DNA from: a virus
Lineage: Duplodnaviria; Caudoviricetes
Virus record (IMG/VR): IMGVR_UViG_3300028888_000001
Reading direction: 5' to 3' (one strand)
DNA length: 64,000 nt
Every line of letters starts with the position of its first letter. Position 1 is the first letter of the stretch. A program made the translations under genes and the position numbers. Below are positions 56,141-64,000 of the stretch, in pieces. The notes under the pieces are model-generated. The model saw only the letters and a program-made list of their open reading frames with translations, was not told where the DNA came from and did no database searches.

Positions 56141-56166
56141 CCACACTGGGGCTGATCCCAGTGTGG
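56141..56166 (-). terminator. Intrinsic terminator (variant of the GGGA..TCCC family)
   Basis: ccacactggg-N6-cccagtgtgg with attttt on the minus strand. Confidence 0.75.
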
Positions 56167-56172
56167 TGATTT

Positions 56173-57243
56173 TCACTCTATTAATATAGCTGCTTTAAAA
56201 TAAATATCATTAGTATCTATATCAGCTTCAGACAGATACGGATTATTAGCCATGTGTCTACAATAGTTATTTATGATACTACTATCTAGCTGCTGTTCTT
56301 GAGATTTAATCTTATAAATTATAGCTCTATTATGCAACTGATAGGTTTCATATATTGCAGAAACAACCTGAAACACTTTATAGTTAGCTGGGAATGTGAA
56401 AATGCCATCTTCATAAAGTGAAGTGAAATAGCCGTTCTCATTCTCTAGCATTAGAATATGGTTTCTAAGATTTCCAGTAACAAATATAGCGTAAATATTT
56501 GAATTGGCGTCCTCATCTAGTATTTTTGAATTGAGCTTAGTACCGTTTTCACTAACGCAAATATATAACGGAAAATATTCTGAATCTATATGAGCTTCAT
56601 TTAACGCATGTGGCGTATTTTTATATTGCTCAAATGTCTTAAAGTCATCATATTTATTTATTATGTCGCAGAAAGAATTCATCTCTTGTGTATAAATTCT
56701 TTCTATTCTATTTTTCGCTTTTTCTATATTGGACTCAGTCATTTCAACCTCTGGATTCCAACCTAAAGAAATAAGCTGAGTCTTAATATCATTTATCTCA
56801 TCTGGGTCTTCAGTGTCTCTTAATTTCAATTCAAGTTCTTTAATTTCTGTTCCATAATTAAAAGAATCTGCTTTGCATGAATCTGAGTGGTCGATACCAG
56901 TAGTATAATGCTCATTATAAATTAGAGCTGCTGGCATTTCTGTTATGGTAAAGTACGGGCAGTAGATATATTCCCATTTAAACGTGTTTTCTAATTTACG
57001 TCTTTCAGATAATTCTCTATTGATTTCATTTATAGCATATTTAGTATCTCTATATTCAGCAGCCGATTCTATCTCTGAAGAATAGTACCGCTCTAATACA
57101 GTTCTATTAAATACTAAATTAGATTCTGATAGTTGTGTAATTCGTTCCTTTGCTTGATAAATCTTGCCTGGGAATCTATTGAACCCTTCAAGCATAGTTG
57201 ATTCAGCAAATTGTTGTATTTTTTCTTCTAATTTTTTATCCAT
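56173..57243 (-). CDS. Probable head-packaged protein (start revised to MDKKLEE)
   Basis: GGAGG RBS precedes the ATG at 57243, whereas the track start (57291) lies inside a hairpin. Many x-x-E-(S/A) sites; LGWNP motif. Confidence 0.6.
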   Translation of the reverse strand: MDKKLEEKIQQFAESTMLEGFNRFPGKIYQAKERITQLSESNLVFNRTVLERYYSSEIESAAEYRDTKYAINEINRELSERRKLENTFKWEYIYCPYFTITEMPAALIYNEHYTTGIDHSDSCKADSFNYGTEIKELELKLRDTEDPDEINDIKTQLISLGWNPEVEMTESNIEKAKNRIERIYTQEMNSFCDIINKYDDFKTFEQYKNTPHALNEAHIDSEYFPLYICVSENGTKLNSKILDEDANSNIYAIFVTGNLRNHILMLENENGYFTSLYEDGIFTFPANYKVFQVVSAIYETYQLHNRAIIYKIKSQEQQLDSSIINNYCRHMANNPYLSEADIDTNDIYFKAAILIE

Positions 57244-57263
57244 CAATTGCCTCCAATCTTTAA

Positions 57264-57295
57264 AATTATGAGAGGTATTGCTACCTCTCATAATT
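57264..57295 (-). terminator. 14-bp hairpin with GCAA loop between two late genes
   Basis: aattatgagaggta-gcaa-tacctctcataatt. Confidence 0.65.
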
Positions 57296-57310: not shown

Positions 57311-60300
57311 TTAAATTATTGCTCTTATCATGTCTTCAGTTAGCATACTAGAAGAAGAAACAGATATAGATCTCTTACCGGTTAGATTATTATAGAAATA
57401 ATTACCGTCAAAGTCTTCTTTAATAGAAATAATTTCTTCTCCATTTAGTCTATATTTATTAACAAACTTAGGCTTTTTAGTTATAGCACTTTCAATAAAA
57501 GCAGCTCTAAAAGTTTTATATCCAAGACAATCTATAATGCTGTCTCTTAACGTTACCATCTCAGACATCACTTTCTGCTCAATCAAATTAAATTCAATCT
57601 TCCTGAAGTTTGGATCAAACTCAATCTGGTCTTCTGTAAGCATAAGCTTATCTGTTAATGCTGTGTATATATTAAATACTTTTGAGCCTTCTTTATAGTA
57701 TCTGTTGAGTCTATCTATATAAGCATAGTTACCTATAAACTCATAAGCCTCTATGATATTAAGATCTTTGGTTGGCTCTGTTTTAAGAGCACCATCGTCA
57801 TCTACAACCAAGCATCTATCTAAATTCATATCATTAGTATATACATAATGATCGCTAAGTAATTTTTCAGGATGTCTTGGATCACCAACTTTAATTAAAA
57901 ATGGTTTATGAATTCCTATAACTGGATTTATTGAAGCAAGAGAATTTTCTTTTAATTTTATAGAAGAATATAAAATATTATTCTCAAGCTTTAATGGATA
58001 TTGAACTGCCCATTCATATGCTCCAGATTCAGTAACATTAATTACACCAACCGGAACAAGCTTAGGCGGTGTCTTAGGTTCTGTAAATGCTCTAGCGTTA
58101 GTAAACACATACTCTGTGATTTCTAACGTATCATCATTAAACATAGTTCTTTCAATCATGCATCTAATACAATCATCTATGGATTTATAATATAGCTCTT
58201 CGTCCACTTCATTCGGATATTTCTTTTCAGAGATATACCACCATGTGATAGCACTTATAGGAACAGATTTAAATCCCTCATCATTTACAGCAATGAGAAT
58301 ATTATCATCAGCATTTTCAGGTATGCTTATTTGATTACCAAATATAATATTTGGAGTCTCTTCTTTATCGAACCTATAAGCATTTAAACCTACAGAAATT
58401 GCAGCTTCTACATTTTCTTGTTTATCATCAAAGAATATTGCTCTTGATGGATCAATCTCATATTTATTTAAAAATATAGTATACATTTCTCTATTTGGTT
58501 TTTGAATTTCTCCAAGCTCAAATGAGAAAACTCCTCCATCAAATTTATCAAGTAAAGGTCTAAAGAATGGCTCCTCAACCTCAAATGAGAACTTAGTCCA
58601 ATTTGATAGATAATATAGCTTATAACCTTTAGATCTAAGCATGTCAAGCATATCATATACGTAAGGATATACATACATAGCTTCTCTAAATGTGGCTAAG
58701 ATACTGTCTACATATGGTTTAATATGGTCAGGAGCAACATCATTTAATTTTACTCTAATTTGTTGTAAATTAAGCTGTTGCGTTTCTGAGCTATTGGCGC
58801 TATAGAAGCATTCTTTATCTATAAGGTCTTTAATCTCTTCACATAATTCATTTGGTATATCTGGATTATCGATTAAGGCTTTTAAACTATGCGCATCCAC
58901 AAGCACATTGCCCATATCGAATATTATAGTATCAACAGAATCTGGAATGATACTAATAATAGCGCCCTCAGATAAATACTTATAACACTGAGTTGTTTCT
59001 GGTATTTTAATATCATATTTCTTGGCTGCCGCTTTGATTCTCTTAGCTAAGCGTTTCTTCTTATCTTCTTGAGCATGACCAAAAAGATGTATAGCTGATT
59101 TAACATGCTTAGCTGAATCTAATGGAAATTTTCTATCTTCCGGAATTCCAAAAGCTGAATCTGGCAACTCTGAACGCTTAGTTTCTAATATGGCAGATTC
59201 TTCTTTAAGCATTAAATCAACAAAGTATTTTCTAAATTTCTTTAATTTAGATTCTCCCTTAAACCACATTCCTGGATCAAGAAATTCTGGTTGCTTATCT
59301 CTCTTGCAAGCTCTATAAAGAGAAACGACCATAGAAGTTCCCTTAATATATACAGCATAATTTTTAAGATCTTCAGGTTTAAGGAATAAATAAATCCAAA
59401 TTCCTTCAAGAACAAATTTAGTGTTTTTATGCTTCTTAGCATACTCTATAGTATAATTAACAAAATCATTTATTAACGATTCTTCATAATTAATAGTCTT
59501 AAATTCTTTTGAATCATTTAATTCGTCTGCAGTGAGATAGTATTTCTTATATTTTGGTTCTGTAAAGAAATTAGACACAAGTGGGCCAAATTCATTTTTA
59601 AAATCTTCTATAGTATGATATTCTTTATTCCAGATGATATCATCAAGTTCAACCACTACAGCTTTATTATTATATTTTCTACCCATAGTAGATTTACCAG
59701 AACCAGATTGTCCTGTAATAAAGCATATATTAGTCAAACCTTTATCGAATTTTTCTTTATTATAATAAATATCATCTTTATTAAAGATATAACCTTCAGA
59801 TACATTATTAGAAGCTTCCAAATATAACGCTGCTTCATCAGATTGTGTTTTTTCTTGAATTATATCATTTACTTGCTCAAGCTTAATAGTTTTATTATCC
59901 TCGACATTTTTAAGAATATAATTCGATGAGCCCATACCGAGCCATTTCATATACTCGATCTGATGTGTGCCACCAAGCTTAGAAATTTGCTCCATTAAAT
60001 CTTTATTTCCAGGAGCATTTCTAATAAAATCTAATGACGCTTGTTCTATGGCAAGAATATCCGTAGATACTAAAACGCCTATATTGGGAATAGTACTTTT
60101 AGGAGCATCTTTATCACAGTCGCACATTGTAGATAGATTTTGTAATACGTTTACATAAACTATTCTATTGTCAAACATCGATTCTATAGCAGAAGCAGAT
60201 TCTACTAAACGCTCTAAGAATAATGGGCCTCGAATCCAATCTTCACCATGAATTTGAATTTTTCCTTTAGCGCCTGTAGGAATACCCATTCCGATATTCT

Positions 60301-62623
60301 TTACAGCGCCACCATATCCAGCAACGCCGTGACCTTTAAAATGAGTATAGACGATCATACTATCATAATTCTTTATATGAGCACCCACATTAATTTCTGA
60401 TAAATGTCTTCCTGGGGTGACGCATGATTCGTAACCAGGTTTTCCATTAGCTAGAGCTCTAAGTTCTTGATCTATTAGATATTTTTTAGGAACGCTAATA
60501 TCTATACCACCATCAGCATCCAGTATATCGATATATCCAAAATCAAAGCCATGTTCTCTAGCAGTATTTATATGATCTTGAGTTGTTCCTCTAGTAGAGC
60601 CCTCATAAGCAGTATTAGAATCAACTAAAGCACCGTTAGTGTATTTAACTAAGTCTTTAAGAAGATTAGGATTTAAGAAATTCTTATTGCCAGATTCGCC
60701 AAAATGTAATTTTATGGCAATTCTGTCTCCAAGATAATCTTGGAATAATGAAACCATATATGCTATAGTTTTAGAATCAATACTTGAAGAATAATACACT
60801 ATAGGCTTTTCTTTAGGATTATATGCTTCTTTAAGAAGTTTAATCCTATCTAGTATAGCAGATTCTCCATAACCAGTGTTAAAATTCCACTCGTTATCTT
60901 TAACAAGCTCCTCTTTATGATCTATCAGATATTTTAACGTTACTGGCTTATTGTTATAAAACATCGGATATACGTTTATATTTCTTTTTCCATCTGTGGT
61001 GTTATATTTTCTGATATTATGTATATGCCCATGAATATTCCACCAATCTTCTGGATACGTATCCATATTTACCGGTCTATGAGTAAACAGATAATTCCTC
61101 CAAGTAAAGTCTTCTAATACATAATCAAATCCACACTTTGTAAAGTAATCTTGTCCTAGCATCTTATCATGATTACCAAGAACAAAAATCTTATGACCAG
61201 CAATAGAAGCCATAAACTCTTGAGACTTTTTCTGATCTTCTTGGTTAGCATATCTAAAACTCAAATCACCAAGATATATAAACACATCTTCAGGCTTTAT
61301 ATTTTGCTTGCACCACTTAAGAATTTCTTGCGTGTTTACATAATTAGCCTCGTGCTTATAATGATTTTTGAAGAAATGCCAATCTGACGTTAGGAATATA
61401 CGATCTAACGGAGTGTTATCTAATAATGAAGTGATATCCGGTTTATATGATTCCATATCCGGCAATTCAAATTCTATTTCAGAAGATGACTTTTTAGTAT
61501 TCTTCAATGGATCATAAATATTGCCAGCATAAAGCTCGTCGTCTTCTATATCTAAACCAACATCAAAGGCTTCTAAATTAATAGATGCCTTATTTTTTTC
61601 TCCGTGCAACTTTAAGTCATCTCCTTTACTGTAAAATGCTCGCTCTAATGATTCATAATCTTTATTCATTAAATCATATACGATATTTTGAGTAAATAGT
61701 ACACTCCTCATCCCAATAAGGTTAGCCATTTCTATGCTAGGCTCTTGGTCATCTATAAGAATAGTATTATTTATACTGAGATTGTATCTATTCAATAGTC
61801 TATTTAAAAATTTATAATTTGGTTTGCTCATATTTTCTTTGAAAGAGAATAATCCTCCATCAAAATATTTATCTAAGAATTTAAATAAACCATTCATTCT
61901 ACAAATTTCATATGAGCTTCGAGTCCAGTTTGATAAATAATATAGTTTATAACCTTTAGACTTAAGGTTTTCCAGTAATGGTATAGTATAATCGAATAAT
62001 GTTTTGCTTCCAGAAGCAAAATCAAATAAGCTCTTTATAAACTCATAACTAAAACCATAAGAGTCCATAGCTTTAATATAGTTTCTAAGTGCTATATCAT
62101 ATGGTATACTATCATTATTATATACTATCTTATAATATATACTAAGATATTCTCTAAGCTGTTCTTCTGTAATTTTTAATTTTCTTAATAGAGACTCTGG
62201 ATTAGCTCTATTCTTGATTAAAACTCCACCTAGATCGAATATGATATTATAAATTCTATTATCATACTCATCCATAAAAGATTCATCGATTACATTTCTA
62301 TATTCCCATTCAAAGCCAGTTGTTCCATTATCAACAAATTTTATTTTCCCAAATTTCTTGACTCTTATAGTATCTATAAATTTAACTTTACCTTCGGTCA
62401 TACTATTTGGAAAGATTTTATTTTTGTCTATATCATAAAGAATATAAACAAATAATTCATCACCAACATAAATATTTCTGTATTCTTTTATAGCAAGCTC
62501 GACTGAAGTAAATAAATAATTATTACAATCTGTTGGCGATAATGTTAGATTTACACTATCTTTTGAAGATAGATAATAATATCTAAAAGTATCTACCCTA
62601 GATTCATGTGTGTTGGATAACAT
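57311..62623 (-). CDS. Multi-enzyme polyprotein: HAD / metallophosphoesterase / DUF362 / P-loop kinase / DUF6582-like / HAD
   Basis: IFDLGGVL; SDWH, GDLS, GNHD, HGHIH; KLHFGE, HFKGH..GGAVKN, CDC; GQSGSGKST; RSELPDSAFGIPEDRKFPL; IFDMGNVL. Confidence 0.85.
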   Translation of the reverse strand: MLSNTHESRVDTFRYYYLSSKDSVNLTLSPTDCNNYLFTSVELAIKEYRNIYVGDELFVYILYDIDKNKIFPNSMTEGKVKFIDTIRVKKFGKIKFVDNGTTGFEWEYRNVIDESFMDEYDNRIYNIIFDLGGVLIKNRANPESLLRKLKITEEQLREYLSIYYKIVYNNDSIPYDIALRNYIKAMDSYGFSYEFIKSLFDFASGSKTLFDYTIPLLENLKSKGYKLYYLSNWTRSSYEICRMNGLFKFLDKYFDGGLFSFKENMSKPNYKFLNRLLNRYNLSINNTILIDDQEPSIEMANLIGMRSVLFTQNIVYDLMNKDYESLERAFYSKGDDLKLHGEKNKASINLEAFDVGLDIEDDELYAGNIYDPLKNTKKSSSEIEFELPDMESYKPDITSLLDNTPLDRIFLTSDWHFFKNHYKHEANYVNTQEILKWCKQNIKPEDVFIYLGDLSFRYANQEDQKKSQEFMASIAGHKIFVLGNHDKMLGQDYFTKCGFDYVLEDFTWRNYLFTHRPVNMDTYPEDWWNIHGHIHNIRKYNTTDGKRNINVYPMFYNNKPVTLKYLIDHKEELVKDNEWNFNTGYGESAILDRIKLLKEAYNPKEKPIVYYSSSIDSKTIAYMVSLFQDYLGDRIAIKLHFGESGNKNFLNPNLLKDLVKYTNGALVDSNTAYEGSTRGTTQDHINTAREHGFDFGYIDILDADGGIDISVPKKYLIDQELRALANGKPGYESCVTPGRHLSEINVGAHIKNYDSMIVYTHFKGHGVAGYGGAVKNIGMGIPTGAKGKIQIHGEDWIRGPLFLERLVESASAIESMFDNRIVYVNVLQNLSTMCDCDKDAPKSTIPNIGVLVSTDILAIEQASLDFIRNAPGNKDLMEQISKLGGTHQIEYMKWLGMGSSNYILKNVEDNKTIKLEQVNDIIQEKTQSDEAALYLEASNNVSEGYIFNKDDIYYNKEKFDKGLTNICFITGQSGSGKSTMGRKYNNKAVVVELDDIIWNKEYHTIEDFKNEFGPLVSNFFTEPKYKKYYLTADELNDSKEFKTINYEESLINDFVNYTIEYAKKHKNTKFVLEGIWIYLFLKPEDLKNYAVYIKGTSMVVSLYRACKRDKQPEFLDPGMWFKGESKLKKFRKYFVDLMLKEESAILETKRSELPDSAFGIPEDRKFPLDSAKHVKSAIHLFGHAQEDKKKRLAKRIKAAAKKYDIKIPETTQCYKYLSEGAIISIIPDSVDTIIFDMGNVLVDAHSLKALIDNPDIPNELCEEIKDLIDKECFYSANSSETQQLNLQQIRVKLNDVAPDHIKPYVDSILATFREAMYVYPYVYDMLDMLRSKGYKLYYLSNWTKFSFEVEEPFFRPLLDKFDGGVFSFELGEIQKPNREMYTIFLNKYEIDPSRAIFFDDKQENVEAAISVGLNAYRFDKEETPNIIFGNQISIPENADDNILIAVNDEGFKSVPISAITWWYISEKKYPNEVDEELYYKSIDDCIRCMIERTMFNDDTLEITEYVFTNARAFTEPKTPPKLVPVGVINVTESGAYEWAVQYPLKLENNILYSSIKLKENSLASINPVIGIHKPFLIKVGDPRHPEKLLSDHYVYTNDMNLDRCLVVDDDGALKTEPTKDLNIIEAYEFIGNYAYIDRLNRYYKEGSKVFNIYTALTDKLMLTEDQIEFDPNFRKIEFNLIEQKVMSEMVTLRDSIIDCLGYKTFRAAFIESAITKKPKFVNKYRLNGEEIISIKEDFDGNYFYNNLTGKRSISVSSSSMLTEDMIRAII

Positions 62624-62658
62624 AATAGTCTCCTTATCTACAGTTATAGTTTAAAATT

Positions 62659-62670
62659 TATTTTAATGTC
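62659..62670 (-). promoter_or_regulatory. Putative late promoter of the polyprotein gene
   Basis: gaca-ttaaaa-taa on the minus strand. Confidence 0.65.
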
Positions 62671-62719
62671 GAGCAGACAATAATTTAGAGGAGGCTATTA
62701 AAGCCTCCCCATTTTATTT

Positions 62720-63815: not shown

Positions 63816-64000
63816 TTAATTACTAATTGCGTAATAGTCTTTATTTTTATAAACTCTAGATTTTCTGCCTAAGTATGGCGTTCTAGTATAAGAGCTCTTA
63901 GTGAACTCATACCAAACCAAATTAGTTTGATATTTCTTAGCTAGATCTAAGCTATGCTGAGTACCAGTGCCATGACTTGCAGAATCTTTGAAACAAATAA
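63816..64000 (-). CDS. 3' end of a probable SLOG (DUF2493/YspA-like) protein; truncated by the window edge
   Basis: Manual translation ICFKDSASHGTGTQHSLDLAKKY resembles the SLOG C-terminal GT..M..A motif. Confidence 0.5.
   Translation of the reverse strand, partial: ICFKDSASHGTGTQHSLDLAKKYQTNLVWYEFTKSSYTRTPYLGRKSRVYKNKDYYAISN

Follow-up and report, generated by a model that had tools for sequence, protein, structure and literature searches.

A single open reading frame (ORF) of 1770 amino acids (aa), P0001, located at positions 57311-62623 on the minus strand of the 64,000-nucleotide stretch of DNA that we analysed (hereafter the window), encodes a probable capsid-loaded enzyme polyprotein that would be processed by the prohead protease; on the evidence of sequence comparison, we hold this reading to be somewhat better than an even bet. 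The window corresponds, in reverse complement, to bases 201541-265540 of a virus record that is complete (IMGVR_UViG_3300028888_000001; 313,331 bp, with direct terminal repeats). The predicted protein, of 206 kDa when intact, is a chain of about ten modules, mostly phosphate-handling enzymes, arranged in the order short leader, Nt, HAD phosphatase, metallophosphoesterase, DUF362, P-loop kinase-like module, DUF6582, HAD phosphatase plus Ct1, and Ct2 (Table 1). A preliminary description of this DNA, made from the letters without database searches, had proposed this ORF and six of its modules (two HADs, a calcineurin-like metallophosphoesterase, DUF362, a P-loop kinase and a DUF6582-like module); the ORF is present on the minus strand and all six modules are real by Pfam and PHROGs profiles, while Nt, Ct1 and Ct2 had escaped its notice.

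We propose the following pathway. The polyprotein would be synthesized late, from a promoter of the AR9 late type, and then taken up into the assembling prohead, with the parts common to all relatives (DUF6582 and, above all, Ct2) as the likely loading determinant. The T4 gp21-type prohead protease would next cut after the Glu of a hydrophobic-x-Glu (h-x-E) motif at nearly every joint between modules, thereby setting several enzymes free within the capsid, together with a basic DUF6582 protein of 8 kDa. The freed proteins could finally enter the host along with the DNA; both this injection and the substrates of the enzymes are things that we infer only.

Conserved glutamates at the joints between modules

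At the level of the family, the joint motif gives a strong signal in the aligned sequences. First, of 39 non-redundant contexts of the P-loop module, 35 have [ILVM]xE placed 29 residues ahead of Walker A; for DUF6582, where the offset is likewise fixed, the motif was counted in 23 of 30 contexts, or in 29 if any Glu is accepted. The expectation in either case is 6%. At P3 the order is I>V>L>M, while G, N, A, S or T occupies P1'. Second, internal copies of DUF6582 are preceded by [ILV]-x-E↓(T/S/A) (the arrow marks the putative cut) alike when the upstream module is a P-loop, a DUF362, a metallophosphoesterase, a GNAT acetyltransferase or an unrelated sequence, and proteins that start with DUF6582 begin with MSNDYNGKKRSEL, without the joint Glu. 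Third, DUF6582 ends with YL(S/N/T)E↓G in 100% of the relatives aligned, and for Ct2, 39 of 44 representative clusters have a Glu at a distance of 3-10 residues ahead of NPhxG. Fourth, the terminal Glu of the metallophosphoesterase (GYGE↓S) aligns with ILSE↓T where DUF6582 follows directly, and DUF362 is entered in most relatives through [ILM]-x-E placed about 10 residues before its first strand (LLKE↓A in P0001). Conserved Glu residues were also found at the end of DUF362 (IKLE↓Q), before the HADs (VIDE↓S) and before Nt, where h-x-E↓SR(I/V)D or the 7-residue leader is present. The Glu sites 1147 and 1559 lie in loops of the structural models described below, in which the predicted local distance difference test (pLDDT) is below 50, which speaks for their accessibility.

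Among the sites that the preliminary description had listed, VIDE↓S, GYGE↓S, LKE↓A, VSE↓G, ILE↓T and LSE↓G are conserved and YLE↓A and LKEE↓S are not; IKLE↓Q and LKE↓N are conserved joint sites beyond that list.

A prohead protease of the T4 type and the putative processed end of the capsid protein

The genome carries a gene for a T4 gp21-type prohead protease (Table 1), which matches phrog_3014 (E 1e-22) and phrog_207 (head maturation protease). Near its C-terminus this protease has VLE↓T and LSE↓N, which are candidate self-cleavage sites by analogy with those known for SPN3US gp245 and phiKZ gp175.

The cleavage rule of the clade can be read from the major capsid protein, which was identified with PHROGs, a search with PF07068 giving no match. 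Its sole cultured homologue is phiR1-37 g135, whose experimentally mapped maturation site is given in its GenBank record as 'mature N-terminus at Ser87', that is, MLQE↓SMIGGVNPIAALSLPM. In a BLAST alignment, this LQE↓S site of phiR1-37 falls on VRE↓NAVAGIASWNPMIGLSLPM of the present capsid protein, with the putative cut after E100, a stretch that is conserved in ten related contigs. From the mature end of g135 and this alignment it follows that the cleavage site of this clade's protease has Glu at P1, a hydrophobic residue at P3 and a small or polar one at P1'. The cleavage rule thus appears to be that of T4, and not the A/S/G-x-E of the phiKZ group. The present capsid protein has 679 aa, as compared to 616-640 aa in ten relatives (59-73% identity), and it can be aligned up to about residue 625, so that about 55 C-terminal residues are extra in this phage.

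The beginning of Ct2 resembles the processed N-terminus of the capsid protein, both in P0001 (LKE↓NSLASINPVIGIHKPF) and in its relatives (NE↓WSMAACNPICGITKPF). This beginning is the top local match between the Ct and capsid families (hhalign P=0.0067), and in the 92,000-residue proteome the full pattern of the NP-h-I-G type occurs only in Ct2 and in the capsid protein. A complex prediction for the mature capsid protein with Ct2 gave a score of 0.00, which counts neither for nor against their association.

Module turnover around a constant C-terminal region

A database search yielded 164 large relatives, and the following description is based on the 120 listed. Among these matches, all 120 come from metagenomic contigs, many of them 165-325 kb long; at least 120 relatives are 1000-2800 aa in length and belong to jumbo-phage contigs. 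What is constant across them is DUF6582 and the C-terminal region, above all Ct2. What varies is the metallophosphoesterase, DUF362, one to three P-loop modules, the HADs and GNAT acetyltransferases, all of which can be present, absent, duplicated or inserted. The breakpoints all fall in linkers of P0001 (about residues 369-396, 588-592, 916-940 and 1141-1148), and the domain shuffling at these same linkers, which the preliminary description had suggested looking for in related phages, is thus seen at the joints.

The two closest relatives (81% identity) are longer by 600-800 residues, which lie between their DUF362 and P-loop modules (about 610 in P0003 and about 815 in P0002). At the other end of the range, a 517-aa relative from an IMG/VR contig (L007) consists of metallophosphoesterase-IGE↓S-DUF6582-LSE↓SS-INE↓W-Ct2 only. 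HAD2 alone is missing in L004 and P0046-49, and both HAD2 and Ct1 are missing in L007; HAD2 and Ct1 are therefore each a separable unit. The Nt module is mostly N-terminal in the relatives, either directly or behind an extension that ends with h-x-E↓SR(I/V)D.

Searching exhaustively with Ct2 alone, we matched 85 of 1.84 billion representative clusters; nearly all of the 85 have Ct2 at the C-terminus, in proteins ranging from 73 to 2523 residues. Some of these representatives are only about 200-240 aa long as database entries, with short unrelated leaders that end in Glu (MIDNLLNKEDTKVDE↓W and MNE↓S). With the standalone Ct (340 aa), a word-indexed database returned one fragment only, and it is the exhaustive search that found the short forms. 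There is also a second large subfamily, with DUF6582 at the start and a Ct2-like tail at the end.

Properties of the individual modules

The modules were assigned in a domain scan with E-values of up to 1 for Pfam and up to 0.01 for PHROGs, and this segment-by-segment profiling, which the preliminary description had recommended, confirmed the enzymes. The two HAD domains (HAD1, about residues 124-320, with a Pfam match at about 124-312; HAD2, residues 1229-1418, with a Pfam match at 1230-1412, E 8e-25) are paralogues with 29% identity, and the HAD assignment is above the Pfam cut-off (PF00702, 88.8 bits; PF13419, 58.7 bits). The nearest structures of HAD2 are YihX and HAD subfamily IA variant 3 (E 1e-7 to 1e-9), and HAD motifs I-IV are legible in the translation (FD(L/M)G, LSNW, KP and DD). 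The metallophosphoesterase (residues 406-582) matches phrog_547 (E 5e-23) and the structure of aq_1665 (1xm7; E 1.5e-4), with five legible motifs (SDWH, LGD, GNHD, THR and HGHIH); a match to PF00149 was reported for relatives and not for P0001 itself. The P-loop module (about residues 944-1140) has both Walker A and Walker B; its Pfam AAA/P-loop matches are weak and sub-threshold (residues 954-1005), shikimate kinase matches it with E 0.19, and the module lies below every family cut-off. The predicted catalytic motifs are thus complete in both HADs, in the metallophosphoesterase and in the P-loop module.

DUF362 (PF04015; residues 635-865) was found with E 1.5e-33 and 117 bits for a cut-off of 24, and no solved relative of it emerged from a sequence search. 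DUF6582 (PF20223; residues 1152-1209; E 2.5e-9, 37.8 bits for a cut-off of 27.3) is small, basic (isoelectric point (pI) 9.7) and helical, and would be an 8-kDa protein if excised. Its column identity is about 90% over 23 diverse relatives, as compared to about 50% for the surrounding enzymes. A literature search found no paper mentioning DUF6582, and none relevant to DUF362 together with phages.

These enzymes look like generic phosphate-ester hydrolases accompanied by a kinase-like ATPase. The preliminary description had imagined cyclic oligonucleotides, ppGpp or RNA ends as their substrates; generic family membership is what would speak for such substrates.

The C-terminal region (340 aa) comprises two modules that belong to no family, Ct1 (about residues 1440-1555) and Ct2 (residues 1560-1770). 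AlphaFold (AF2) models of residues 1141-1770, made from a 34-row alignment, had a mean pLDDT of 80-82. For the Ct fold, Foldseek returned nothing from the PDB at E <= 0.001, and the best Z in a wide VIA search was 4.3, under the noise level of VIA. The weak rows, all at noise level, resembled ADP-ribosyltransferase (ART) toxins (residues 1454-1550), NlpC/P60-type peptidases (residues 1570-1676) and dsRBD/HPF folds (residues 1707-1770); these readings were rejected, as neither a Cys/His pair nor an ART motif is conserved. The 630-aa model gave HAD matches only in BFVD, and ESM Atlas gave no usable match for Ct or for the 372-aa neighbour of the polyprotein. As regards internal repeats, Nt is not similar to Ct.

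Table 1. Features of the polyprotein gene, its surroundings and the head genes of the same phage (positions without prefix are those of the window; C1, genome).
Feature	Position	Strand	Description
Leader (7 residues, MLSNTHE↓S) and Nt module	62282..62623	-	residues 1-114 (Nt 8-114, 107 aa), end VIDE↓S; no known family
HAD1 phosphatase, YihX-like, FDLGG	61571..62281	-	residues 115-351, tail end INLE↓A
Acidic spacer	61466..61570	-	residues 352-386; without clearly conserved cut site
Calcineurin-like metallophosphoesterase	60863..61465	-	residues 387-587, end GYGE↓S
Short spacer	60827..60862	-	residues 588-599, end LLKE↓A
DUF362 module	59876..60826	-	residues 600-916, end IKLE↓Q
Spacer with IIQE↓K and LYLE↓A	59795..59875	-	residues 917-943, end NVSE↓G
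P-loop kinase-like module, Walker A GQSGSGKST	59183..59794	-	residues 944-1147, end AILE↓T
DUF6582 module	58967..59182	-	residues 1148-1219, end YLSE↓G
HAD2 phosphatase and Ct1	57947..58966	-	residues 1220-1559, end KLKE↓N
Ct2, start NSLASINPVIG	57314..57946	-	residues 1560-1770; C-terminal module in whole family
AR9-late-type promoter motif GACATTAAAATAAAT	62656..62670	-	47 nucleotides before ATG
Ribosome-binding site AAGGAG	62630..62635	-	AGGAGG-type, the most enriched upstream k-mers in the genome
G+C-rich hairpin	62688..62710	.	between upstream 219-aa gene and promoter motif; terminator-like, flagged on plus strand only
372-aa gene	56173..57291	-	no known family; starts 19 nucleotides after polyprotein stop
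Terminator-like hairpin with T-run	56141..56166	-	closes the two-gene unit
T4 gp21-type prohead protease	C1:94684-95529 (L013:6684-7529)	+	PF03420, 43.8 bits, above cut-off
Major capsid protein, 679 aa	C1:88052-90091 (L013:52-2091)	-	PHROGs
Scaffold-like protein, 392 aa	C1:90218-91396 (L013:2218-3396)	-	beside capsid gene; 31% Asp+Glu

Expression signals and gene neighbourhood

The late promoter motif that the preliminary description had seen upstream of the gene is there (Table 1). It belongs to the class nACAT-N4-WTAA, which has 57 hits in the genome; 39 of them stand 20-100 nucleotides ahead of a gene start on the same strand, most often at 40-49 nucleotides, where 2.2 would be expected. 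The motif resembles the AR9 late promoter consensus A-11ACA-(6N)-TA (PMC7598289). It also precedes the protease gene, the genes for 2254-aa and 314-aa homologues of virion proteins and a spike-like gene; the capsid operon has no strict match to it. The G+C-rich hairpin located upstream of the promoter motif is likely a terminator or insulator.

The 372-aa gene downstream is probably co-transcribed with the polyprotein gene. In seven related contigs, synteny covers this gene together with four others downstream of it, and in six of the seven also a fifth (111 aa); since the 372-aa gene lies next to the polyprotein in seven contigs, its product may work with the polyprotein. The 314-aa homologue of a virion protein (phrog_21032), with its late-type motif, lies 8 kb upstream of the polyprotein gene. 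Directly after it, beyond the window end, there is an 1836-aa ORF (C1:194979-200489, plus strand; L012:8979-14489) for which no Pfam or PHROG match was found. Two genes upstream of the polyprotein is a gene whose 215-aa product has a nucleotide-binding domain of the YAcAr/SLOG type (PF10686; phrog_289), at 63816-63998 on the minus strand and continuing to 64463 past the window end (L012:15078-15725).

The phage and its source

The genome is that of a complete 313-kb jumbo phage of the AR9/phiR1-37 kind. It carries split multisubunit RNA polymerase subunits, whose nearest cultured relatives are those of Yersinia phage phiR1-37, Bacillus phage AR9/PBS1 and Staphylococcus jumbo phages (25-32% identity). 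The whole stretch is present in one sequencing run only, a sheep-gut metagenome. Short contigs that are nearly identical to it were also present in DNA runs from goat gut and in a single RNA library from sheep gut; being contigs only, they are silent on transcription and its timing. A DNA search of cultured phages gave no match, and no paralogue of the polyprotein was found elsewhere in the same genome.

A hairpin with the core gaattaggcNtaNgcctaattc, set within about 50 nucleotides of conserved flanks, is repeated at seven gene borders in both orientations (e.g., upstream of the genes at C1:34617, 125210, 126869, 263789, 271062, 273024 and 296423), and may be an intron-associated or terminator cassette. 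A search for early promoters returned an enriched CCTAAT word, which proved to be a repeated hairpin element and not a promoter.

Comparison with known systems

In phage T4, the enzyme Alt and the internal proteins IPI-III are loaded into the prohead, cut after Glu in hydrophobic-x-Glu and injected with the DNA (PMC5694885). The present system resembles this one in having a protease of the same Pfam family and a motif of the same form. In T4, however, there is one protein per gene and the targeting peptide is short and N-terminal (the capsid-targeting sequence), whereas the present polyprotein, known from sequence alone, has about ten modules per chain, sites at internal joints and a constant, presumed targeting part at the C-terminus. 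In phiKZ and SPN3US, many head and ejection proteins are likewise processed after Glu by homologous proteases, frequently at more than one place in a protein (PMC10052503). The group of phiKZ gp175 and SPN3US gp245 (MEROPS S80) prefers A/S/G at P3, whereas I/V/L/M stands at this position here, as in T4 and phiR1-37; moreover, the known substrates of giant-phage proteases lose propeptides and are not strings of independent enzymes. Together with the concept of polyvalent proteins (see below), these T4 and giant-phage systems are the precedents for our reading. The likeness to the polyproteins of RNA viruses is one of concept only: there too, one product is cut at short linker motifs into working proteins, but by a protease that is part of the chain and acts in the cytoplasm, whereas we propose a separate protease residing in the capsid.

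Alternative explanations

Several observations weigh against a packaged and processed polyprotein. In P0001 taken alone, [ILVM]xE occurs 4.0 times per 100 aa in linkers and 1.8 times in domains (binomial p=0.04), a weak enrichment that partly reflects acidic linker composition, Glu itself being enriched in linkers (12.4 vs 6.6 per 100 aa); the enrichment check suggested by the preliminary description was thus weak in the single protein and strong across relatives. The motif is common (2.2% of positions), and conserved copies of it also occur inside folded parts (residues 1162, 1664, 1736 and 1763). No conserved Glu site was found across relatives at the start of the metallophosphoesterase module or at the HAD2-to-Ct1 junction. 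Where the motif is kept at a fixed offset from a module, it could be a structural module edge and not a cut site. We take the resemblance of Ct2 to the capsid protein as a lead, because it covers few residues and chance would yield about 0.8 full-pattern matches in the proteome; its hhalign probability is 5.7%. The promoter of the polyprotein gene (GACA-TTAAAA-TA) has G where AR9 has A at -11, G being frequent at this place within the motif class of this genome, and, as said above, the capsid operon lacks a strict match. The polyprotein gene is 110 kb away from the capsid and protease genes. A protein search of cultured phages gave single-domain matches only, the family occurring in no cultured phage.

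The main alternative would be a multi-enzyme protein that works in the cytoplasm and does not enter the virion, the fusion serving co-expression or channelling of nucleotide or sugar-phosphate reactions; we consider it rather unlikely. Its nucleotidase and kinase activities could reshape the deoxynucleoside triphosphate pools of a phage of the AR9/phiR1-37 type, with possibly deoxyuridine-containing DNA, and the h-x-E motifs would be structural caps at module edges or a mere product of linkers that are acidic and generally enriched in Glu. Such a role agrees with the ordinary metabolic types of the enzymes (YihX-like HAD, small metallophosphoesterase, kinase-like P-loop), and with the name 'FMN phosphatase YigB/cytidylate kinase' given to one relative by its source. 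The surroundings also speak for it: thymidylate kinase and helicase genes are nearby, no structural annotation was found for the syntenic downstream genes, and one syntenic neighbour resembles AR9 g220, which adjoins the genes for dCMP deaminase and ribonucleotide reductase; the last two points also weigh against packaging. What a cytoplasmic protein leaves unexplained is, first, that a Glu with a hydrophobic P3 and a small P1' is kept across non-homologous upstream contexts; second, the fast turnover of modules around the invariant, non-enzymatic Ct2; third, the start of Ct2, which is like that of the processed capsid protein; and fourth, the late-type promoter common to the protease and virion genes.

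Improbable in our view is an internal head protein or scaffold-type assembly protein, which would be packaged and cut, its fragments then serving assembly or DNA organisation, or being expelled, instead of acting as injected enzymes. Such a role would agree equally well with the protease sites and with a Ct2 that starts like the capsid protein, T4 core proteins being cut to fragments that exit the head (PMC5694885), and DUF6582, as the most conserved module, small and basic (pI 9.7), could be a DNA-bound internal protein. Yet the completeness of the catalytic motifs in both HADs, in the metallophosphoesterase and in the P-loop argues for active enzymes and not for filler, and a separate hyper-acidic scaffold-like gene already lies beside the capsid gene. 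The product of that gene (392 aa) is helical at its C-terminal end, carries TVEE↓N in its N-terminal part and is not fused to enzymes here.

Polyvalent proteins, found in phages and conjugative elements, are multi-domain, multi-activity proteins predicted to be delivered with the DNA, and are sometimes processed into units (Iyer, Burroughs, Anand, de Souza and Aravind, 2017, PMC5512222). A search of that article for terms did not find the present set of domains (HAD, metallophosphoesterase, DUF362, P-loop kinase-like, DUF6582 and Ct2), HAD, DUF362 and calcineurin being absent as domain names. We give little credence to the view that P0001 is such a protein, delivered as an intact multi-activity chain or cut by a host-encoded or unrecognised protease instead of the prohead protease: at least two unrelated catalytic domains in one phage polypeptide (many, in this case), rapid domain turnover and the precedent of the N4 virion RNA polymerase and some polyvalent proteins that are packaged unprocessed (PMC5512222) speak for it, whereas the Pfam and PHROGs scans detected none of the signature anchoring or processing domains (zincin MPTase, MuF/SPP1 gp7, portal fusion, ART, DdrB-ParB), there is no embedded peptidase (Ct lacking the conserved Cys/His pair of a papain-type enzyme), the processor that we propose being the head-maturation protease, and the joint motif matches the prohead-protease site of the T4/phiR1-37 type.

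We thus favour the capsid-loaded polyprotein processed by the prohead protease. The cargo cassette of the preliminary description, packaged and then cut, is partly supported, because the sequence-based tests were favourable (profiles, shuffling, the Glu at the joints, the encoded protease and the h-x-E↓S site of phiR1-37); the HAD2-Ct1 junction, with no conserved site, and the neighbours, which are not identifiable as head genes, are its weak points.

Significance of the proposed capsid-loaded polyprotein

As a more specific proposal, which we find possible and on balance doubtful, Ct2 would be a C-terminal capsid-loading tag, which after cleavage would begin with an imitation of the mature capsid-protein N-terminus (E↓x-S/A-h-A-x-x-NP-h-I-G). 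An enzyme module of any kind, if set ahead of it behind an h-x-E joint, would be loaded, cut free and injected, a re-programmable loading of cargo in jumbo phages of the rumen and gut, and DUF6582 would be co-injected to act on DNA or on a conserved host target.

If our reading is true, it would provide a function for DUF6582, for DUF362 and for a family of about 85 clusters without description in the literature that was searched. The arrangement of module, Glu joint, module and constant tail would show how foreign proteins can be loaded into large phage capsids by a simple, natural rule. The phage would bring in its enzymes ready-made, in a set that can change, at the moment when the DNA enters and no phage gene has yet been expressed, this being the stage when host defences and nucleotide pools matter most.

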